Shown piece after piece: positions 8,228 through 63,400 of a stretch of DNA of 64,000 bases; within the stretch, counting starts at the first letter, position 1; the number at the start of each line of letters is the position of its first letter. Under the pieces are notes generated by a model that made no database searches, was not told the origin of the DNA, and was given only the letters and a program-made list of their open reading frames with translations. Both the position numbers and the translations under genes were made by a program. The stretch comes from Naegleria gruberi (lineage: Eukaryota): the NCBI GenBank assembly GCA_000004985.1, contig GG738856.1, one strand, 5' to 3'.

Positions 8228-8316
8228 GAAATAATACCAACCCAAACTCAAACTCATTTAATAATATAAAACATTGATGATCCAAATTTAGTTCCTTAGA
8301 AATTGTAAACTTGACT

Positions 8317-9063
8317 TTAATAACTCCATTTGAAATATCCTCCAAAATATTTAGCAATAGATTTCATCAATTGGTGATACTTTTCATCAAATCTCTTCAA
8401 AAATAAAATTGTATTCACAACAGGAGATTCTTTTGGATTAAAAGCTGGTAAAATCTCAATAACATGTTCTCTATTTTCAACTCCATCAGTCATGAGATAG
8501 ATGGCAGTTTCATTTCTTGGATTTGATTTAAATAGAGTCAATGCGCTTCTCAATCCAAATTTAATATCAGTATGTCCATCAATACTTTTCCAGCCAGTGT
8601 GTTGTTTCAACCAATTAATTGCTGAGAGAGCTCCTTTACTTTTTCCATCAGTTACAATTGGTCCAAATGTTGAAACGATTGGTCTGACTTTGTCACTAAA
8701 CAATTGAATGTAAATCACTTGATTAGTTTTAAATTGATCCATTTCTAATAATGCATTTTCAATTGTACGAATCACCAAATCGATTCTTCTTGTTGGTGGA
8801 CTAAAGAATACTAATTCATTCATGGATGCAGAAATATCAATGGAAAAGAGGACATTCTTAGCAGTGGGATGACAAAGTGATTTTTCGTATCTTTCTTCAA
8901 ATAAACATCCTGGATTTGGAGAATCAGATAATTGTTCAAATGTTTCGATGGAAAGTTTATCTGCCAAATCGTCAAATAAATCGTATTTTTCAATACTTCT
9001 TGATGAGCAGGTGATGAAGGCGGTGAGGAGAAGCACCACGAGAATGGTGGTAAATTGACGCAT
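8317..9063 (-). CDS. Secreted von Willebrand factor A (vWA) domain protein
   Basis: N-terminal signal peptide (MRQFTTILVVLLLTAFITCSS). MIDAS-like DxSxS motif (FSIDISASMN) followed by an alpha/beta-type sequence. Confidence 0.6.
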   Translation of the reverse strand: MRQFTTILVVLLLTAFITCSSRSIEKYDLFDDLADKLSIETFEQLSDSPNPGCLFEERYEKSLCHPTAKNVLFSIDISASMNELVFFSPPTRRIDLVIRTIENALLEMDQFKTNQVIYIQLFSDKVRPIVSTFGPIVTDGKSKGALSAINWLKQHTGWKSIDGHTDIKFGLRSALTLFKSNPRNETAIYLMTDGVENREHVIEILPAFNPKESPVVNTILFLKRFDEKYHQLMKSIAKYFGGYFKWSY

Positions 9064-55779: not shown

Positions 55780-58700
55780 ATGACAAGCAAGAAGAAGAAG
55801 GCTTCATCTTCGTCATCAACAACATCGTCATCACATGAAGAGGAATCATCAACAACAAAAAATAATATTATGGAGGATGATGCGGGTACTTCTAGTAATA
55901 ATAACAACAACAAGAAACACAAATCAAGTAAACGTAAAAAAAATTCTGATGAAAGTGTAGTGGATGAAGTAAAAAAGACACCTCTCAAAGTGAAAATTAA
56001 ACTGGGTGATACTGAAACAACAGTAGATCCTCTCGAACCTGAAAAGAGAAAGAAGAAGAGAGAATCTAAAAAATCCGATCAAAAATCACTTGTTTCAACA
56101 CTTATTACCCTTTTGGACAAACTTTTCAAGGCAGATAAGAAACAGAACTTCTGGTATGCTGTTCCCGAAAAAGAAAAACAGTACTATCAAGTCATTGATA
56201 ATCCTATGGATTTATCTTCAATTCAAGCAAAATTACTTCTTGGAAAGTACTCTTCAATTGGTAAATTTAGACAAGATCTAGACATTATTCACAACAATGC
56301 AGAAAAGTTTAATGGACAAGCTTCCCCAATTTTCAAGGCTGCAGAAAGGTTGAAATCAATTTATACAAAAGAACTTTCAGCTTACTCCGATTCGGATCCA
56401 ATAGTAACACCTCTCACAAATGACGATAGTACAGTAGAAGAATGTATGATACAGATTATAGATGCTCTTAAATATGAAGATTCTTATTCCATTTTCCATG
56501 AACCAGTCCCAAAGGAAGTTCCAAATTACTATGAGACTATCAAAAAACCAATGGATTTTGCCACTTTGAAGAAGAAGGTGACAGATCATAAGCTTTCCAT
56601 TTCTAAGTTTGAAAAGTACATGTTACGTATTTTTTCTAATGCAACAAAGTTCAACCTTCCAGATACTCTCTACTATGCAGAAGCTGTAAGAATTTCAAAA
56701 CTTTCTACTGAGCTGGTAGAGAAGCTTAAATCAAAATTCTCCTCTGAATCAAAACCAACTGTCACTATCACTGTAAAGGAGCCGCAACCAGAAGAGAAAA
56801 AAGAGAAAAAGTCAAAGAAAAAGAAAGAAGACAAAAAAGTCGAGAAGGAAGAAAAAGAAAAGAAATCAAAGAAAAAGAAAGAAAAAGAAGAAAAAAAGGA
56901 AGAAGTTAAAGTAGAACCTATTGTAGAAGAACCTTTTATTGATTTGAATGATACAGGATCTATGAGCGACGATGTTAAAACACCTAAGAAATCTTCCTCT
57001 GATAAAAAGAAAACTCCTAAGACAAAATCGACTACAAAATGGAAGGATCGTGTACGTATTACAGACTTAGATTTTCCAGATTTGGAGGACACACCTTTGT
57101 ATTCTCTTCTTGAATTAGTTTGGAAAAAACTAATGTCTATAGACGAATATTTAATATTTAAAGATCCTGTATCCAAAGATGTACCAAATTACCATAATAC
57201 AATTAAAACCCCAATGGATTTAACAACCATTAAGGGAAAAATAGATGATAAGAAATATACTAAGTGGCGAGAATTTGAAGATGATGTTGATCTTGTATAT
57301 GATAATTGCAAAACTTTTAACTCTCAAGATTCTATATATTCAAAAGAAGCTAACAGACAGCATAGATGGTTCAGAAAATGGAAGAAAGATATGGTGACTC
57401 ACTTTGGCAAGATTGAGGTTGCCGATCTTTCTGAAAAAGTTGTTTGTGACTATTTTAACGAGATATCTGTTGTTAAGACACACGCACCAAAGTATGATGT
57501 TACTCTTTTGAATACAATGGAAGAAGCAGAAGAGGAGACAACATTACCAAAAACTTCTCTTTGCTATCACCTTCTCAAAATTACAGAAGAGCTTAAAAAA
57601 CACGACAAGAACAAATACTTTTGGGAGAGTGTTGACGAAAGCGTTCATCCAAACTATAGTAACCAAATCAAACATTCTATTTGTTTATCAATGATAGCCA
57701 GTAATTGTAACAACAAACATTACAAGACTATTGATCAATTTATTAATGATATTGATCTCTTACATACTAATACTTCTACTTTCTTCTCTCCAAACTCTAA
57801 AGAAGCAAAAGAATCAAAAGCCTTATTGAATCTGGCTAAAGAAAAAGCACAACCTTTGAGAATTAAGACTTTCAAAGATGGTCCAACTTCTGCCAATAGT
57901 TCCAGTACAAACACTACAACACCAAAAACAAGGAGAGAAACTAGGGCATCAAGTTCACTTTTGGATGATATTGATAATTTTCTTGATATGGATGAAAAGG
58001 ATGATTTATTATCTAATGTGAAATCCGATAAAAAGAAGAAACCTTTAGCAAGTGCCTCTAAACCAAAAAGACGAAGACCAGTAAGCACTGCTGCAACAAA
58101 TCCATATAATAAGGATATTGAATTAGGATGGGTGCCACATATTCATAATTGTGCATACTGGCAATTCCCATCCTATTTGCCTGATCCTAATCCAGAAAAT
58201 AGACCTAAATCAATTGAATCCAATCATGATGCAACTCAATCATTCATTGATCCAGCATCCCTATCTAGCTCGTACAGTAGAGGTGATGATGAATCAAACT
58301 CATCTCAAGATGAAAGTGCTCCAAAACCAAAGAAAGAGAAAAAAGAAAAGGAAAAGACTCAAAAAATCACTTCCAATTCATCCGACATTGTTATTCCACA
58401 AAACATTTCAACATCAAAAACACCTAAGACCACCAAGAAGGAAAAGAATGTCACTATTCCACACACACCAACCTTAAATATCTCAGTTCCCCCATTCACC
58501 TCACCAAATTTATTCTCTCAATCAGCCACTGGTTCTAAATCAACTGCTCCACCTCAGGTTGTACATTTAACTACTGTTGAAAATAGACCACTTCCAAAGT
58601 ATTCCTATATCATCAAAAAGTATCGACAAAATTTATCTATTAACAAACCTAAAATTGATTTGAATCAACTCAAGACTATGAATCTTTCGGATTGTATGAA

Positions 58701-59256
58701 ACTCTTCTCAGATGATGAAAGATCAGTTTCTGAAATCGTTGAAGCAATGAAACAAAAACCAGATACCATACCAACAGATAATCTTTTATATGGACTTTCA
58801 GGCTTTAAGGACATTAGCCCAGAAGATGATGAACTCATTCAAAAGTTGGTCAAGATTGCTACCAAAGATGGAGGATTCAAGATGGATTCACACTTTGATA
58901 AGGCTTCACGTAATAATTCTTCACCAAAAGCTTCACTTTCATCAAAACATGTTGAAAAGGACATCATGGATGAAGATGATGACGACGATGAGGATGATGA
59001 GGAAGAAGAAAATGATTTGTCTGACATTGAAGATTTTGATGAGGAATTCGACCATAAGAAGGAAAAGTACACAGAAGAAGCTGATATGGATGATGACGAC
59101 GATGAATTTGTTGAGGGTGATGTTATGGAGAGAGTTTTGCAAGATTTTGAAACAGTTACCTTCCCAAGTACTAGAAGAAGTACTCCCGAAGAATTGTTCA
59201 AGAAGGTCAAACAAACACTCATGGATGAAGGTGTTAATATCTTTGAAGATGAATAA
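55780..59256 (+). CDS. Multi-bromodomain protein (4 bromodomains, polybromo/RSC-like) with K/E-rich and acidic low-complexity regions
   Basis: Four bromodomain signatures, e.g. FWYAVPEKEKQYYQVIDNPMDLSSIQAKL...NAEKFN and YLIFKDPVSKDVPNYHNTIKTPMDLTTIKGKI...CKTFN. Single 1158-aa ORF. Confidence 0.8.
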   Translation: MTSKKKKASSSSSTTSSSHEEESSTTKNNIMEDDAGTSSNNNNNKKHKSSKRKKNSDESVVDEVKKTPLKVKIKLGDTETTVDPLEPEKRKKKRESKKSDQKSLVSTLITLLDKLFKADKKQNFWYAVPEKEKQYYQVIDNPMDLSSIQAKLLLGKYSSIGKFRQDLDIIHNNAEKFNGQASPIFKAAERLKSIYTKELSAYSDSDPIVTPLTNDDSTVEECMIQIIDALKYEDSYSIFHEPVPKEVPNYYETIKKPMDFATLKKKVTDHKLSISKFEKYMLRIFSNATKFNLPDTLYYAEAVRISKLSTELVEKLKSKFSSESKPTVTITVKEPQPEEKKEKKSKKKKEDKKVEKEEKEKKSKKKKEKEEKKEEVKVEPIVEEPFIDLNDTGSMSDDVKTPKKSSSDKKKTPKTKSTTKWKDRVRITDLDFPDLEDTPLYSLLELVWKKLMSIDEYLIFKDPVSKDVPNYHNTIKTPMDLTTIKGKIDDKKYTKWREFEDDVDLVYDNCKTFNSQDSIYSKEANRQHRWFRKWKKDMVTHFGKIEVADLSEKVVCDYFNEISVVKTHAPKYDVTLLNTMEEAEEETTLPKTSLCYHLLKITEELKKHDKNKYFWESVDESVHPNYSNQIKHSICLSMIASNCNNKHYKTIDQFINDIDLLHTNTSTFFSPNSKEAKESKALLNLAKEKAQPLRIKTFKDGPTSANSSSTNTTTPKTRRETRASSSLLDDIDNFLDMDEKDDLLSNVKSDKKKKPLASASKPKRRRPVSTAATNPYNKDIELGWVPHIHNCAYWQFPSYLPDPNPENRPKSIESNHDATQSFIDPASLSSSYSRGDDESNSSQDESAPKPKKEKKEKEKTQKITSNSSDIVIPQNISTSKTPKTTKKEKNVTIPHTPTLNISVPPFTSPNLFSQSATGSKSTAPPQVVHLTTVENRPLPKYSYIIKKYRQNLSINKPKIDLNQLKTMNLSDCMKLFSDDERSVSEIVEAMKQKPDTIPTDNLLYGLSGFKDISPEDDELIQKLVKIATKDGGFKMDSHFDKASRNNSSPKASLSSKHVEKDIMDEDDDDDEDDEEEENDLSDIEDFDEEFDHKKEKYTEEADMDDDDDEFVEGDVMERVLQDFETVTFPSTRRSTPEELFKKVKQTLMDEGVNIFEDE

Positions 59257-59688
59257 ATTATCAGATTCATCTCTACATATTGTGTGTGGTATTTATTTTG
59301 TACATATTTACCAAACGCTTCTTCACTAGGAGTATGGGGACAAGTTAAAATTTTGAATCATTTCCTATGAGTGACATTCTTCATTTACACTTCGAATTCC
59401 CATTTTTTCAAAAATAATAACATTATTATCCTCCTATAATATTATTAATTCTGATCCGATCACTAATCAATGATAATTTACTGAATATTTATTCTTCGAT
59501 TTAATGATCATTTATTGTGTCTGAAGTTATTCTCCCTTCACGAAGAATGTTGTGTGAAAACTCTCATCAAGCATTATTTTTTGATGAGAGTTTTAAAAAT
59601 GCGCTTAGCGCAGACTTCATTGTAAAATACTCATATGCCTAGGCAACCTCAAAAATTAAAAATTTGTTTCGAAAAAAAATAGAACACA

Positions 59689-60090
59689 ATGACCGCCGGA
59701 AAGACTTCTATCAAGGTTAGACAATTCTTCACTAACAGACTTTTGAACAGAAAGCAATTCGTTGTTGACATCCTCCACCCAGGTCAACCATCCCTTTCTT
59801 CTGCTCAATTGAAGGAAAAGTTGGCTGAACAATTCAAGGTTGCTAACCCACAAACTATCATGTTGACTGGTTTCAAGACTAAGTTCGGTGGTGGTAAGAG
59901 CTCTGGTTTTGCTAACATCTACGATTCCATCCAAGATATCAAGCTCGTTGAAGCCAAGCACAAGTTGGCTAGAAACAAGCTCATCACCCTCAAGAAGGAC
60001 GGTAGAAGATTGAAGAAGGAAAAGAAGAACAGAGCCGCTGCTGTTCGTGGTAAGGAAAAGACTAAGGTCAAGGGTGCCAACAAGAAGTAA
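59689..60090 (+). CDS. RPS24: 40S ribosomal protein S24 (eS24)
   Basis: FTNRLLNRKQFVVDILHPG...FGGGKSSGFANIYDS...KHKLARNKL matches eS24 along its whole length. Confidence 0.9.
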   Translation: MTAGKTSIKVRQFFTNRLLNRKQFVVDILHPGQPSLSSAQLKEKLAEQFKVANPQTIMLTGFKTKFGGGKSSGFANIYDSIQDIKLVEAKHKLARNKLITLKKDGRRLKKEKKNRAAAVRGKEKTKVKGANKK

Positions 60091-60408
60091 ATTACTTTTA
60101 CAAAATAAAAACTATTTAAAATCATTAAATTATTGTTTGTTGTTTTTAATATTTTTTAAATATTTTTATTTAATAATTGATTAATATCATCTATTCCGCA
60201 TAATACGAATAGTATGACTAATTATTCAGCTTCAACTTTATAAAAGAGCAGTAACCAAACAGAAGATACTTCTAAAAAGGATCCAAGCTCAATCAATTCT
60301 TTCCTTAAAATTCTCAAAATTCAATTCTGGATGGACATTGGACATCAAACCAACTATTATTAAAGCTTAACAGTTGATACAATACCAATTCCTCATATCA
60401 AAAAAACA

Positions 60409-61560
60409 ATGAAAACAATTCTTCTTGTTAACATTGCTCTCTTGTTCTGTTTGGGATTGGTTTTGGCAGATACCTATGCTCCTCAACCACCAAAAGAACA
60501 TTGCTATAATAAGTGTACTCATTACAAGACTGTTCAAGGTCAATGTGTTGATTTTGAATGGACTGGCACTAAGAAACAATGCTGTTTGTGGAAGACTGTT
60601 GGTATGTAATTTGTTTAATTGCATTTCTTTGTAATTTTCGATTGTGTTATTGGAAACATTTCAGGTCAAGGAAAATGTGCTGAATATAAGAAGATTTCCA
60701 AGTGTGACAAGTACAGTAAGGCAAGAACTCTCTGCTTGGGTCATGGTTATAAACAAGTTTGCAACAAGGTAACCAAACACAAGTTGTGTGCCAAATACGA
60801 ATGGAAAGAAGTGTGTAAACATAACGGAAAGAATCATGGTTGTGACAGTTATGGTTATCACTTTATCTGTACCAAGACTGACAAATCTCAAGGATGTTCA
60901 TTGTATACCTATGTTCCAAGAATCAAACATCATTACAAGAGAAGATGTTCCAAATATTCCATTCAACAATACTGTGCCAAGTATAAGAAGATTTACAAGA
61001 CTGTTAGAAGATGGGTTCCAGTCAGTAAGAAACATTACAAGGGTTGGATTGATCATTATTACAAGCAAGTTTTGGAAAAGAAGTTCCACACTATTTGTGT
61101 TGCCTATGCCAAGAAGAAGACTTGTACTGCTCACCAACGTGTCAAATTCTCAAAGAAGATTGGTTATGACAAGAAGTGTGTCAAATTCTTTGAAAAGAAG
61201 TATTGTATTGCCAAGAAGAGAGTTAAATTCTGTGAAAAGTGGTCTCCAAACAAATTCTGTGATTTGAAGGAAAGAGTTAGAGTTTGCATCAAGCACAGAG
61301 TTCAAAAATTCTGTTGTGATTATAAGGCTGTTCCATTCTGTACTCAATACAAGACATTGAAACCAAGATGTATCAAGAAATCTCACAAGAAGATTTGTGT
61401 CAAGAAGTCTAAAGGTTATAAGGTTTGTGCCAAGTATGAATTCGTTGGAGGAAAGAAGGTATGTAAGAAGTATGCTGAAAGAAGTGTCTGTGCTAAGAAA
61501 CAAAAGGTCTGTACCAAGATTGACACTTACAAGAAGGTTGATACCTATGCAAAGAAATAA
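60409..61560 (+). CDS. Secreted Lys/Tyr-rich protein built from ~27 tandem C-x8-C modules (~362 aa). Two exons: 60409..60601 and 60665..61560.
   Basis: Signal peptide MKTILLVNIALLFCLGLVLA. 63-nt intron GTATGT..CATTTCAG, phase 1. Mature protein is a near-perfect periodic array (…KYxxKxxC…) with Cys every 9th residue and pI strongly basic. Confidence 0.65.
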
Positions 61561-61723
61561 GTGAGATTCAAATTGAATGAACGAAAATTTTGAAATTTTG
61601 TTAATATAAAGAGTAAAACTCTCTATTCGTTCTTCCCAAAACACATGGTTTTGATTTTATTTGTTTTTGAGAAAATGAGAATATTGATAGTCTCCTTAAT
61701 TGAAACAAATCATAATTTTCTTA

Positions 61724-63400
61724 TTAAACTTTGTTTTTTTTATTGTAGAGGAAAAGCTGGGAAGAGAAAAAGCCGCATCGTTGTAGAATGTCGTTAGGAG
61801 TTTCGCCATTGGTATTCTTTAGATTCATTTCAGTGTAATTAGAGTACATCAAAAAGGTCATGCATTCAATGGCACTTTCCTTTTCTGGAGTGATTTCGTT
61901 GTTTGTTTTAAATTCCATTAGAGATTCCATTCTGCGAGCTGCTTTATGGACTGGCGTTTCCTGCAGAGGAGTCGAATCTTTGGCATTGTAAATCTGCTTT
62001 AGTTGATCAGTGTTAGGATACATTTCTTGGAGTTGATTTGAAAGCAGTTCTAGAACTGGAAAATGACCTCCTTCGCAAGCAAAGTGGAGAATATTGTACT
62101 TTCTCTTATCTTTCTTCTCTATTAATTGATTGTAATAGTTTCTGTCCATCAGAAGAGAACAAACAGACAGCAATTCCTTGTTACCATTCAAAGCTGCTTG
62201 GTGGAAAATATTGATTCCTTCAGGGCATTCGGATTCGTTCTTGATCCATTTCTTAATGCTACCTCCACACATCAACTCTACCTCTTTCTGAATCAGAATA
62301 CAGTAGCACAAGCTTCTCTTCATTCTATTTGTTATTTCTGGTGGGAAGTCCATGTCCTCTGATGTTTTCTTACCAGAGGAGTTGTCGTCTGACTTTCTCT
62401 TCTTTGATTTTGTGCATGTTGCTTCTTCTTTAGAATCTGCACCATGTATTGATTGACCAATTTGAATTTGAGTGTTGGGTGAGTGTGGGGTAGGTAAGTT
62501 ATTGTGCCCATTGATTAATCCCTCTGAATTACAACTCTCTCTGTAATTATAGATGGAACTAATTAGTGGCCTTCTTCCATTCTCGTCTTTAGCCTGAATT
62601 TTGGCACCTCGTTTAATAAGCCAATTCAATCCTTTAGAATCTGACTTTTTAGCTGCAATGTGCATACAGGTTTCTGAACTTGTTTTCTTCGAATTAATAA
62701 CTTCGTTACCAAAAATTTCAATCAACTTGTCCATCACCTCAAATCTTCTTAATCTGTATGCTACGTGGAAGAATGTATTACCATAAACATCTTTGGCCTC
62801 TCTTTCAAGGCGTGAAAATACAAAATTGGTGTTTAAGAACAATAACATACAGTCCATCGAATTATTAGCGATGGCAACATGAAGTGGAGTTGCTCCACTC
62901 TTTTGTTCTCTAAGATTCACATCGAGTACTATGTCAGCACCAACACTGGAGAACGTTGTCAACAACGATAGCAGAATATTTACATGATTGCCTGCCATGC
63001 ACCAGTGAATTGCTGCTCTCTTGGTTGTTCTTTCAAGAGCATTGATATTATATGTTTTGATAAACTCTTCCTTCTTCATTTGAGCTCTAGCTTGAATCAT
63101 TTCTTCCAATAACTGATTGACTAAATATTCATCTCCAACTCTGCATGCCTCAACTATTTCCTGAATCCAATTAGAAGAGAAAGATGGACTCGAAGGTGAT
63201 GTTGGTGACGAAGGAGGATAGAATAATTGACTTTGACTTGTGCTAGCATAGTAAAAATCAATAGCTGCACCATCATCACTACTCACATCAGAAGAAGTGC
63301 TCAATTGGTCATTAAATTGATGTTGCTCGGAGGAACTATATCCAACATGAAGAAACTTTGGATTAATATCAATAGGACTACTTCTCAATATTTGTGGCAT
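61724..63400 (-). CDS. Ankyrin-repeat protein (558 aa)
   Basis: At least 6 ANK repeats (TPLHVAIANNSMDCMLLFL; ETCMHIAAKKSDSKGLNWLIKRGAKIQAKDENGRRPL; NILHFACEGGHFPVLELL). S/P-rich N-terminus. Confidence 0.75.
   Translation of the reverse strand: MPQILRSSPIDINPKFLHVGYSSSEQHQFNDQLSTSSDVSSDDGAAIDFYYASTSQSQLFYPPSSPTSPSSPSFSSNWIQEIVEACRVGDEYLVNQLLEEMIQARAQMKKEEFIKTYNINALERTTKRAAIHWCMAGNHVNILLSLLTTFSSVGADIVLDVNLREQKSGATPLHVAIANNSMDCMLLFLNTNFVFSRLEREAKDVYGNTFFHVAYRLRRFEVMDKLIEIFGNEVINSKKTSSETCMHIAAKKSDSKGLNWLIKRGAKIQAKDENGRRPLISSIYNYRESCNSEGLINGHNNLPTPHSPNTQIQIGQSIHGADSKEEATCTKSKKRKSDDNSSGKKTSEDMDFPPEITNRMKRSLCYCILIQKEVELMCGGSIKKWIKNESECPEGINIFHQAALNGNKELLSVCSLLMDRNYYNQLIEKKDKRKYNILHFACEGGHFPVLELLSNQLQEMYPNTDQLKQIYNAKDSTPLQETPVHKAARRMESLMEFKTNNEITPEKESAIECMTFLMYSNYTEMNLKNTNGETPNDILQRCGFFSSQLFLYNKKNKV

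Follow-up and report, generated by a model that had tools for sequence, protein, structure and literature searches.

Cystine-ladder beta-hairpins are known as small peptides: theta-defensins, protegrins, tachyplesins and hepcidin consist of 16-25 residues with 2-4 rungs separated by a few residues, and act in innate immunity or iron signalling. Short tyrosine motifs involved in cross-linking or adhesion are found in resilin (SDSYGAP), in plant extensins and proline-rich proteins (PRPs; PPVYK) and in mussel foot protein 1 (AKPSYPPTYK). Larger Cys-rich structural proteins have been described in the eggshell membrane, in insect cuticle and silk, and in the spore coat of Dictyostelium (PMC12723725, PMC3068167). 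Avian CREMP, Drosophila DUMPY DPY, the Chironomus silk protein Sp185 and the EGF arrays of octovafibrin are built of four-Cys modules closed by local 1-3/2-4 bonds (PMC12723725, PMC3068167); the modules of the CREMP/DPY/Sp185 type, with spacings such as Cx4Cx5Cx8C or Cx5Cx5Cx4C, are true repeats of variable copy number, and EGF-like or related modules with two or three disulfides comprise four to six Cys each (PMC12723725). The Dictyostelium spore coat proteins SP60/70/75/96 contain 7-13% Cys, Cys motifs and basic proline repeats (PMC3068167). In this work we analyzed a gene of the amoeba Naegleria gruberi, NAEGRDRAFT_64980 (64980 in the following), which lies in a stretch of 64,000 nucleotides (nt) of contig GG738856.1 (assembly GCA_000004985.1; "the window"), and compared its Cys-rich product with these systems.

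The 64980 product is a secretory protein of 362 amino acids (aa), the mature part of which (342 aa) contains 32 Cys. We consider it probable that this mature chain is a single long hairpin, the arms of which are cross-bridged by about 15 rungs. The ladder connectivity is inferred from the mirror symmetry of the Cys positions, from the Cys and the indels that co-vary within the family, and from the model predicted by AlphaFold2 (AF2).

Of the 31 Cys-Cys intervals, 16 are exactly 9 residues long and five exactly 10, the others including 17, 18 and 41; since shuffled sequences (20,000 shuffles) yielded on average 1.35 intervals of 9, and never more than seven, the 9-residue periodicity is real and well above chance. 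A preliminary description of the locus had proposed about 27 tandem K-Y-x-x-K modules with a Cys at every 9th residue. The periodicity stands, but the intervals of 10, 17, 18 and 41 interrupt it and the number of modules was too high (21 intervals of 9-10 residues were counted). The literal K-Y-x-x-K motif is present once, and the local consensus is instead [VILFYW]-C-x-x-[YFW], a hydrophobic residue preceding the Cys in 18/32 cases and an aromatic one lying three residues after it in 17/32. The modules are not tandem equivalents either: the BLASTP self-comparison returned only the identity and Tandem Repeats Finder (TRF) no 27-nt period, and a true tandem repeat was rejected on these grounds. 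What is periodic is the spacing, and this spacing is mirror-symmetric.

The Cys positions are arranged symmetrically around residue ~189, with 15 pairs for which i+j = 376-379. Moving outward from the central gap of 41 residues, the Cys of the N-terminal arm (N-arm) are found at distances 0, 9, 26, 35, 44, 53, 62, 71, 80, 90, 99, 109, 122, 132 and 136, and those of the C-terminal arm (C-arm) at 0, 9, 27, 36, 45, 54, 63, 72, 81, 91, 100, 110, 122, 131 and 138; across 138 residues the mismatch between the arms is only -2 to +1 residues, and the irregular steps (10-9-10, 17 vs 18, 13 vs 12) occur at the same rungs in both of them. When the order of the same set of Cys intervals was permuted 2,000 times, the pairs with i+j=377±1 were on average 9.2 and at most 13, so that no permutation (0/2,000) reached the 14 observed. 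This mirrored spacing is not attributable to gene duplication and therefore points to a structural cause, namely two antiparallel halves whose Cys face each other. The features of the gene and of its product, including the rungs predicted by the mirror analysis, are the following:

60409..60601, plus strand: exon 1, with the ATG at 60409, encoding the signal peptide, the N-terminal tail and C32, C36, C46, C58 and C59
60602..60664, plus strand: phase-1 intron of 63 nt that contains an in-frame stop (GTATGT...TTTCAG)
60665..61560, plus strand: exon 2, encoding the remaining N-arm, the hairpin tip, the C-arm and the C-terminal tail TKIDTYKKVDTYAKK, and ending with a TAA stop
aa 21-31, plus strand: N-terminal tail, with a D-T-Y-A-P motif
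60502..60975 (intron included; aa 32-168), plus strand: predicted N-arm, with Cys 32, 36, 46, 59, 69, 78, 88, 97, 106, 115, 124, 133, 142, 159 and 168
60976..61095 (aa 169-208), plus strand: Cys-free hairpin tip of 40 residues, with the AF2 turn at aa 188-192 (HYKGW)
61096..61512 (aa 209-347), plus strand: predicted C-arm, with Cys 209, 218, 236, 245, 254, 263, 272, 281, 290, 300, 309, 319, 331, 340 and 347
61513..61557, plus strand: C-terminal tail rich in Lys and Tyr, in which D-T-Y-[KA]-K occurs twice
Predicted rungs 1-8, numbered from the tip: 168-209, 159-218, 142-236, 133-245, 124-254, 115-263, 106-272, 97-281
Predicted rungs 9-15: 88-290, 78-300, 69-309, 59-319, 46-331, 36-340, 32-347

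Two Cys, C58 and C282, which belong to the CC doublets 58/59 and 281/282, are left without a ladder partner. Within the core subfamily, conservation is highest at the tip (WVPVSKKHYKGWIDHYY), where W181, V184, H188, Y189, G191, W192, D194, Y196 and Y197 are invariant; since it is conserved in the core, rich in aromatic residues (Trp and Tyr, together with His) and different between subfamilies, it is a plausible candidate for a ligand-binding end.

The comparison of the family members is in agreement with this arrangement. In an alignment of five core-type members (64980, one environmental sequence, two from N. fowleri and one from N. gruberi) 31/32 mature Cys are invariant. The core fingerprint, i.e., a signal peptide and 32 Cys with the intervals 4,10,12,1,10,9,10,9x6,17,9,41,9,18,9x5,1,8,10,9,10,12,9,7, is identical in eight sequences (four from N. 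gruberi, two from N. fowleri, one from N. lovaniensis and one environmental), and this identity across species implies a fixed architecture and not a fluid repeat array. Where the number of Cys changes, it does so on both sides. Paralog 64508 has four extra Cys beside the centre, at mirrored positions, which would give 17 rungs. In the 66117 subfamily (38-41% identical) extra mirrored Cys pair 153 with 227 and 175/179 with 201/205 (175/177/179 with 201/205 over the paralogs together), and where one arm has an insertion (interval 17), so has the other at the same rung (interval 21), giving a predicted 18 rungs. In both 64508/48501 and 66117 a single unpaired Cys of the doublet type is kept, and the Cys totals are odd (35 and 37); we read the unpaired Cys as putative sites of intermolecular disulfides or free thiols.

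AF2, run on 21 family members, returned an all-beta giant hairpin (mean predicted local distance difference test, pLDDT, 74.9) with a turn at 188-192 and strands at 31-64, 69-81, 85-117 and 122-187 on one side and 193-259, 265-296, 300-312 and 316-348 on the other, the breaks being symmetric around residue ~190. The disulfide-laddered rod envisaged in the preliminary description comes near to what the mirror symmetry and the AF2 model (predicted template modelling score, pTM, 0.25) favour, but the rod would be made of the two arms of one hairpin and not of a string of modules. The composition points in the same direction: V+I+Y+F+W+T+C account for 40% of 64980 and the content of Leu (2.3%) and Ala (4.1%) is low, because of which beta structure is favoured and helix disfavoured. 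When the arms were threaded at i+j=378, Lys-aromatic contacts were the second commonest cross-strand class and no hydrophobic face was present. A Foldseek search gave no structural match, only weak resemblances to the long hairpin stems of pore-forming toxins and phage tails.

On this basis, it is possible to envisage a mature chain in which the N-arm (~32-168) and the C-arm (~209-347) would pair antiparallel to give one two-stranded beta-ribbon of great length, with the conserved aromatic tip (turn ~188-192) at its closed end and cross-strand disulfides stapling it about every 9 residues. The hydrophobic residue before each Cys and the aromatic one after it might lie on the face opposite to each disulfide, forming small apolar clusters in alternation with the rungs, while the rest of the surface would be Lys-rich. 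Both ends of the chain would leave the ribbon together at its open end, bearing the Asp-Ser/Thr-Tyr-x-Pro/Lys motifs.

Such a ribbon would resemble the cystine-ladder peptides in its predicted antiparallel two-stranded hairpin, with a connectivity derived from mirror symmetry and AF2, in its cross-strand rungs, in its cationic character and in its aromatic residues. Unlike those peptides of about 16-25 aa, mature 64980 has 342 aa, arms of ~140 residues, ~15 rungs placed 9 residues apart and Tyr/Pro/Lys tails, and the two show no sequence relationship. To our knowledge, if the topology is right, the cross-strand disulfide ladder would be far larger than any other. With the CREMP/DPY/Sp185/EGF arrays, the family shares secretion and a Cys-rich composition (~10-17% Cys in those arrays, which are extended, disulfide-dependent fibre or matrix proteins, further cross-linked by Lys-derived bonds in the eggshell membrane); in contrast with them, 64980 has a fixed number of single Cys, one each 9 residues (intervals 9/10), with predicted long-range bonds, and no match to EGF or related Pfam families was obtained at E<=1. 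The Dictyostelium spore coat proteins and the cyst-wall proteins of protists, which are deposited around dormant cells, likewise have a signal peptide, are Cys-rich and belong to lineage-specific multigene families, and the basic proline repeats of the former are reminiscent of the KPPKK tails of the family. However, no homology was found with Jacob (Entamoeba), Jessie, Luke/Leo/Jonah (Acanthamoeba), CWP1-3 (Giardia) or SP75, for which the wall localisation has been demonstrated, and 64980 contains none of the chitin-binding 6-Cys, CBM49, 8-Cys, choice-of-anchor A or LRR domains, nor the C-X4-C-X5-C-X6-10-C motif.

As previously proposed, the product is strongly basic and secreted. The signal peptide (aa 1-20, predicted cleavage between VLA and DTY) is the sole hydrophobic segment, with a Kyte-Doolittle value, KD(15), of 2.89 vs <=0.37 elsewhere; the mature protein has an isoelectric point (pI) of 9.8 and a net charge of +69, is rich in Lys (22.8%), Cys (9.4%) and Tyr (8.5%), and has no N-glycosylation sequon, and no Met follows the start codon. 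The D-x-Y-x-[PK] motifs, at aa 21, 351 and 357, lie in the two terminal tails (N-terminal DTYAPQPP, C-terminal IDTYKKVDTYAKK). Orthologs and paralogs carry one to four C-terminal copies of (K)VDTYKPPK or IDSYKP (up to KVDTYKPPK x4 and IDSYKP x4), with VDTYGEH and VDSYGEH as N-terminal variants, and throughout the family the D-[ST]-Y-x-P/K motifs are limited to the tails or, in divergent paralogs, to inserted loops. In having short motifs centred on Tyr and flanked by Pro and by Lys or Asp (here the repeated D-[ST]-Y-x-P/K), and in being basic and rich in Lys and Tyr, the family is similar to resilin, extensins/PRPs and mussel foot proteins; it differs from them in that its motifs are short tail appendages on a predicted laddered core, whereas theirs fill most of the chain.

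Concerning the function, an extracellular structural role is suggested by the signal peptide, by the lack of any other hydrophobic segment and of sequons, by the 32 conserved Cys, by the confinement of the Tyr motifs to the tails or inserted loops and by a codon bias that points to high expression in some stage. The cyst wall is favoured because it is the obvious extracellular structure of these amoebae and because the family is confined to cyst-forming vahlkampfiids. By analogy with the systems described above, we tentatively suggest that 64980 might serve as a building element of an extracellular matrix, with the cyst wall as the most probable one, an assignment that we regard as possible and still somewhat short of likely; both the wall location and the cross-linking chemistry are inferred by analogy only. 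According to this proposal, the cationic aromatic rod and its tip would bind anionic or polysaccharide wall material, and oxidative coupling of Tyr/Lys in the tails, together with disulfides formed between molecules by the unpaired Cys, would join the units in an insoluble network. The hairpin ladder and a cyst-wall or matrix role, taken as one proposal, appear to us almost evenly balanced between true and false, leaning slightly towards the latter. The most far-reaching version, i.e., a new architecture in which a coreless hairpin of ~140 residues per arm and ~15 evenly spaced cross-strand disulfides, with an aromatic ligand-binding tip at one end and cross-linking tails at the other, would be the principal protein strut of the Naegleria cyst wall, we hold to be rather unlikely. 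The "cystine-ladder rod" of that version would be tens of nanometres long if extended, with 1-2 spare Cys for covalent polymerisation.

The proposal has nevertheless some implications. If the ladder topology is true, 64980 would represent a natural long two-stranded beta-ribbon whose stability does not depend on a hydrophobic core, an example useful to protein design and to work on biomaterials. It is as a cyst that Naegleria resists and spreads, and this applies also to the pathogen N. fowleri, in which the family has two members; an abundant, surface-exposed and lineage-specific wall protein, if this is what the family encodes, might be considered as a target in diagnostic tests or in studies of disinfection. 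There is also a meaningful chance of a new architecture and of a first molecular access to the Naegleria cyst wall. No protein of this wall turned up in the literature searched.

Several points weigh against the hairpin ladder and its assignment to the wall. The pTM of the AF2 model is just 0.25 and the underlying alignment is shallow; with an alignment of five sequences AF2 gave a pLDDT of 34 and no usable model. As the period of 9 is odd, the rungs of a regular antiparallel ribbon would fall by turns on non-hydrogen-bonded and hydrogen-bonded sites, the latter being unfavourable for disulfides, and this implies that the real structure must have bulges or differ in detail. The mirror symmetry alone cannot distinguish between the arms of one chain and antiparallel arms coming from two chains, and the co-varying gains and losses of Cys fall on few branches of the family tree and thus have little statistical weight. 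As for the function, the likeness of the Tyr motifs to those of resilin, extensins/PRPs and mussel proteins, no homology having been found, should be taken as a lead. Literature searches with gene and UniProt identifiers found no mention of any family member, and searches on the Naegleria cyst wall, encystment, transcriptomes and proteomes retrieved no expression, localisation or proteomic data for the family, nor any proteome of the Naegleria cyst wall or usable stage-resolved transcriptome. The RNA-seq paper on N. fowleri cysts lists only a handful of genes, the paper on the Acrasis genome says nothing about walls, and according to the 2023 pangenome paper the stage-specific expression data of Naegleria are very limited.

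The same observations can be arranged differently. The regular Cys interval of 9, together with an 18-residue aromatic/basic super-period that fits closed loops alternating with linkers, would also suit a flexible and extended chain resembling beads on a string, made of independent C-x8-C loops with disulfides between neighbours or of two-disulfide modules of the CREMP/DPY/Sp185 kind, all the more as the known Cys-rich structural proteins are made of local two-disulfide modules. Such a chain predicts neither the mirrored irregular intervals, which none of the 2,000 permutations reproduced, nor the mirrored gains and losses of Cys and the matched insertions of the paralogs; moreover, the modules have no sequence similarity to each other, their number is fixed, non-expandable and identical across species, and AF2 pairs the two halves, so that we consider this arrangement very improbable. 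A comparably small probability can be assigned to an intermolecular zipper, in which the N-arm of one chain would pair with the C-arm of another to form disulfide-linked dimers or polymers. Antiparallel pairing between chains would produce the mirror symmetry equally well, and the odd Cys counts (35 or 37) of several paralogs make some intermolecular bonds or free thiols likely; on the other hand, AF2 places an intramolecular turn at the conserved tip, with G191 invariant, and in the paralogs the extra mirrored Cys pairs gather beside the tip, as would be expected for a true hairpin.

A long hairpin could also serve purposes other than that of a wall strut. A charge of +69, with aromatics interspersed on a predicted stapled beta-ribbon, would suit a secreted polycationic effector, that is, a giant analogue of the stapled-hairpin antimicrobials that the feeding amoeba would release, or discharge into phagosomes, to bind or permeabilise the anionic envelopes of bacteria, or a binder of DNA, polyphosphate, lipopolysaccharide (LPS) or teichoic acids; Naegleria feeds on bacteria, the family comprises several genes and its tip varies, and the weak structural resemblance to the hairpin stems of pore formers goes in the same direction. 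However, the ribbon has no hydrophobic face and hence no amphipathic character of the membrane kind, a chain of 342 aa with a fixed architecture is far from the known antimicrobial peptides, and the conserved Tyr/Pro/Lys tails would have no obvious role; we regard such an effector as improbable. Roughly as little probability is given to the idea that, instead of being a cyst-wall component, the protein might be a trophozoite adhesive, i.e., a mussel-foot-like pericellular glue with which crawling amoebae would attach to negatively charged surfaces, mineral or organic. The contents of Lys (23%), Tyr (8.5%) and Cys (9.4%) and the tails of the KVDTYKPPKK type are reminiscent of marine adhesive proteins, and the codon bias suggests a high expression, but a rigid cross-braced rod is better suited to a wall strut than to a surface primer, and no homology to adhesive proteins was found in the Pfam, PDB and cluster-representative searches. 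Two further candidates were rejected: a metallothionein-like metal binding, which does not suit a secreted protein devoid of CxC and CxxC clusters, and a polyprotein of small cyclic peptides, since adjacent "modules" share Cys and conserved cleavage spacers are absent.

Returning to the family to which the hairpin ladder is attributed, the sequence searches agree with the preliminary description, which could name no known Cys-repeat family. With hmmscan, Pfam-A yielded at E<=1 just two chance matches, both well short of the threshold (Rhv with 13.9 bits, the cutoff being 20.7, and SVM_signal with 10.6 bits), and none to EGF, granulin, hydrophobin or keratin-associated families; the family profile found no sequence match in the PDB at E<=10. 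A word-indexed search of 5.8 billion proteins gave seven matches, the named ones belonging to N. fowleri or N. gruberi and the other four being nameless ENA/NCBI records. When 1.84 billion cluster representatives were searched exhaustively with the profile, no confident match to a known Cys-repeat family appeared; of the 20 matches obtained, the last two are unrelated. These two distant matches (P0034 and P0035; E~1e-4) were rejected as a compositional or periodic artefact, since they consist of long period-9 xxxxxQFCx repeats; from their scores it is evident that a periodic Cys alone can create false "homologs". The close members in N. gruberi are 64980, 64508, 48501, 71888 and 74241, and the divergent ones 66117, 67458 and 76199; the other named members are FDP41_004030 and FDP41_003065 of N. 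fowleri, C9374_000273 and C9374_009239 of N. lovaniensis and ABK040_005866 of Willaertia magna, the remaining ones being environmental sequences. Judging from the sequences retrieved, the family is multigene (at least eight genes in N. gruberi) and restricted to cyst-forming vahlkampfiid amoebae and environmental relatives. The 64980 gene was catalogued before but is uncharacterised, and in the sequence and structure searches it fitted no described family and no solved fold.

Two family members depart from the common layout. NAEGRDRAFT_76199 (P0028) has a cytosolic-looking N-terminal region without signal peptide, joined to the C-arm-like half of the ladder domain only; its gene model is probably a fusion or a misprediction. 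In the environmental sequences P0021/P0037 a less basic ladder domain of ~330 residues follows ~370 residues of a CP-rich Cys repeat with intervals 18-5-5, an arrangement which implies that the ladder domain can be combined with other secreted Cys modules.

As regards the gene model, the coordinates of the preliminary description (60409-61560) are exact, and the single intron and the joining of the signal-peptide exon to the Cys-rich reading frame were confirmed. Splicing yields a protein that does not differ from the public model (XP_002679699, NAEGRDRAFT_64980, UniProt D2V7Z9; P0012), which is annotated as "predicted protein" and nothing more. The sequence WKTVG-x-GKC, which in 64980 lies across the splice junction, is continuous in the N. 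fowleri ortholog FDP41_004030 and in the intronless paralogs; in the ortholog, CCKWKTVGKGKC, spanning the exon junction of 64980, is encoded inside a single exon, and the 74241-type paralog is one open reading frame (ORF) without interruption from the signal peptide to the stop (L002, 174-1364). The splice is thus supported by the continuity of the junction in the ortholog and by the uninterrupted ORF of the 74241-like paralog.

The codon usage of 64980 is biased: AAG accounts for 71% of its 79 Lys codons and TTC for 75% of its Phe codons, and the GC content at third codon positions (GC3) is 0.39, in a window with a GC content of ~33%. None of the 21 long ORFs in the window is as strongly biased. 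A stronger bias is found in the gene for RPS24 (S24e), which lies directly upstream on the same strand (59689-60090) and, with AAG at 25/25 Lys codons and a GC3 of 0.54, was taken as the high-expression reference; the codon usage thus suggests that 64980 may be substantially expressed in some condition or stage. A tblastn search found no further copies of the Cys-ladder gene within the window.

FDP41_004030 is syntenic with 64980, being located between the RPS24 and ankyrin-repeat genes in both species. The gene order common to N. gruberi (window 55780-63400) and N. fowleri (L001, 3498-11967) comprises a bromodomain protein (1159 aa in both species), RPS24, the Cys-ladder gene and, on the opposite strand, an ankyrin-repeat protein.

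Some minor observations concern longer periods within 64980. Over aa 32-347 the autocorrelation is higher at lag 18 than at lag 9, both for aromatics (12 vs 7) and for Lys/Arg (34 vs 26), which suggests a two-rung structural super-period; between C97 and C142, aromatic-rich modules alternate with Gly/polar-rich ones. At the nucleotide level, TRF found a single weak match (42-nt x 2.1, 80% matches) at 61152-61239, in the Lys-codon-rich part of exon 2, which fits neither the 9- nor the 18-residue period.

The site of the intron varies among close relatives. In 64980 it interrupts the Gly codon following WKTV, whereas FDP41_004030 has a phase-1 intron 12 codons further downstream (L001, ~8236-8348) and a second intron near the 3' end; in the 64508-like genes (P0007, P0011 and P0020) bacterial-style ORF calls read into the intron that follows CLGHG.

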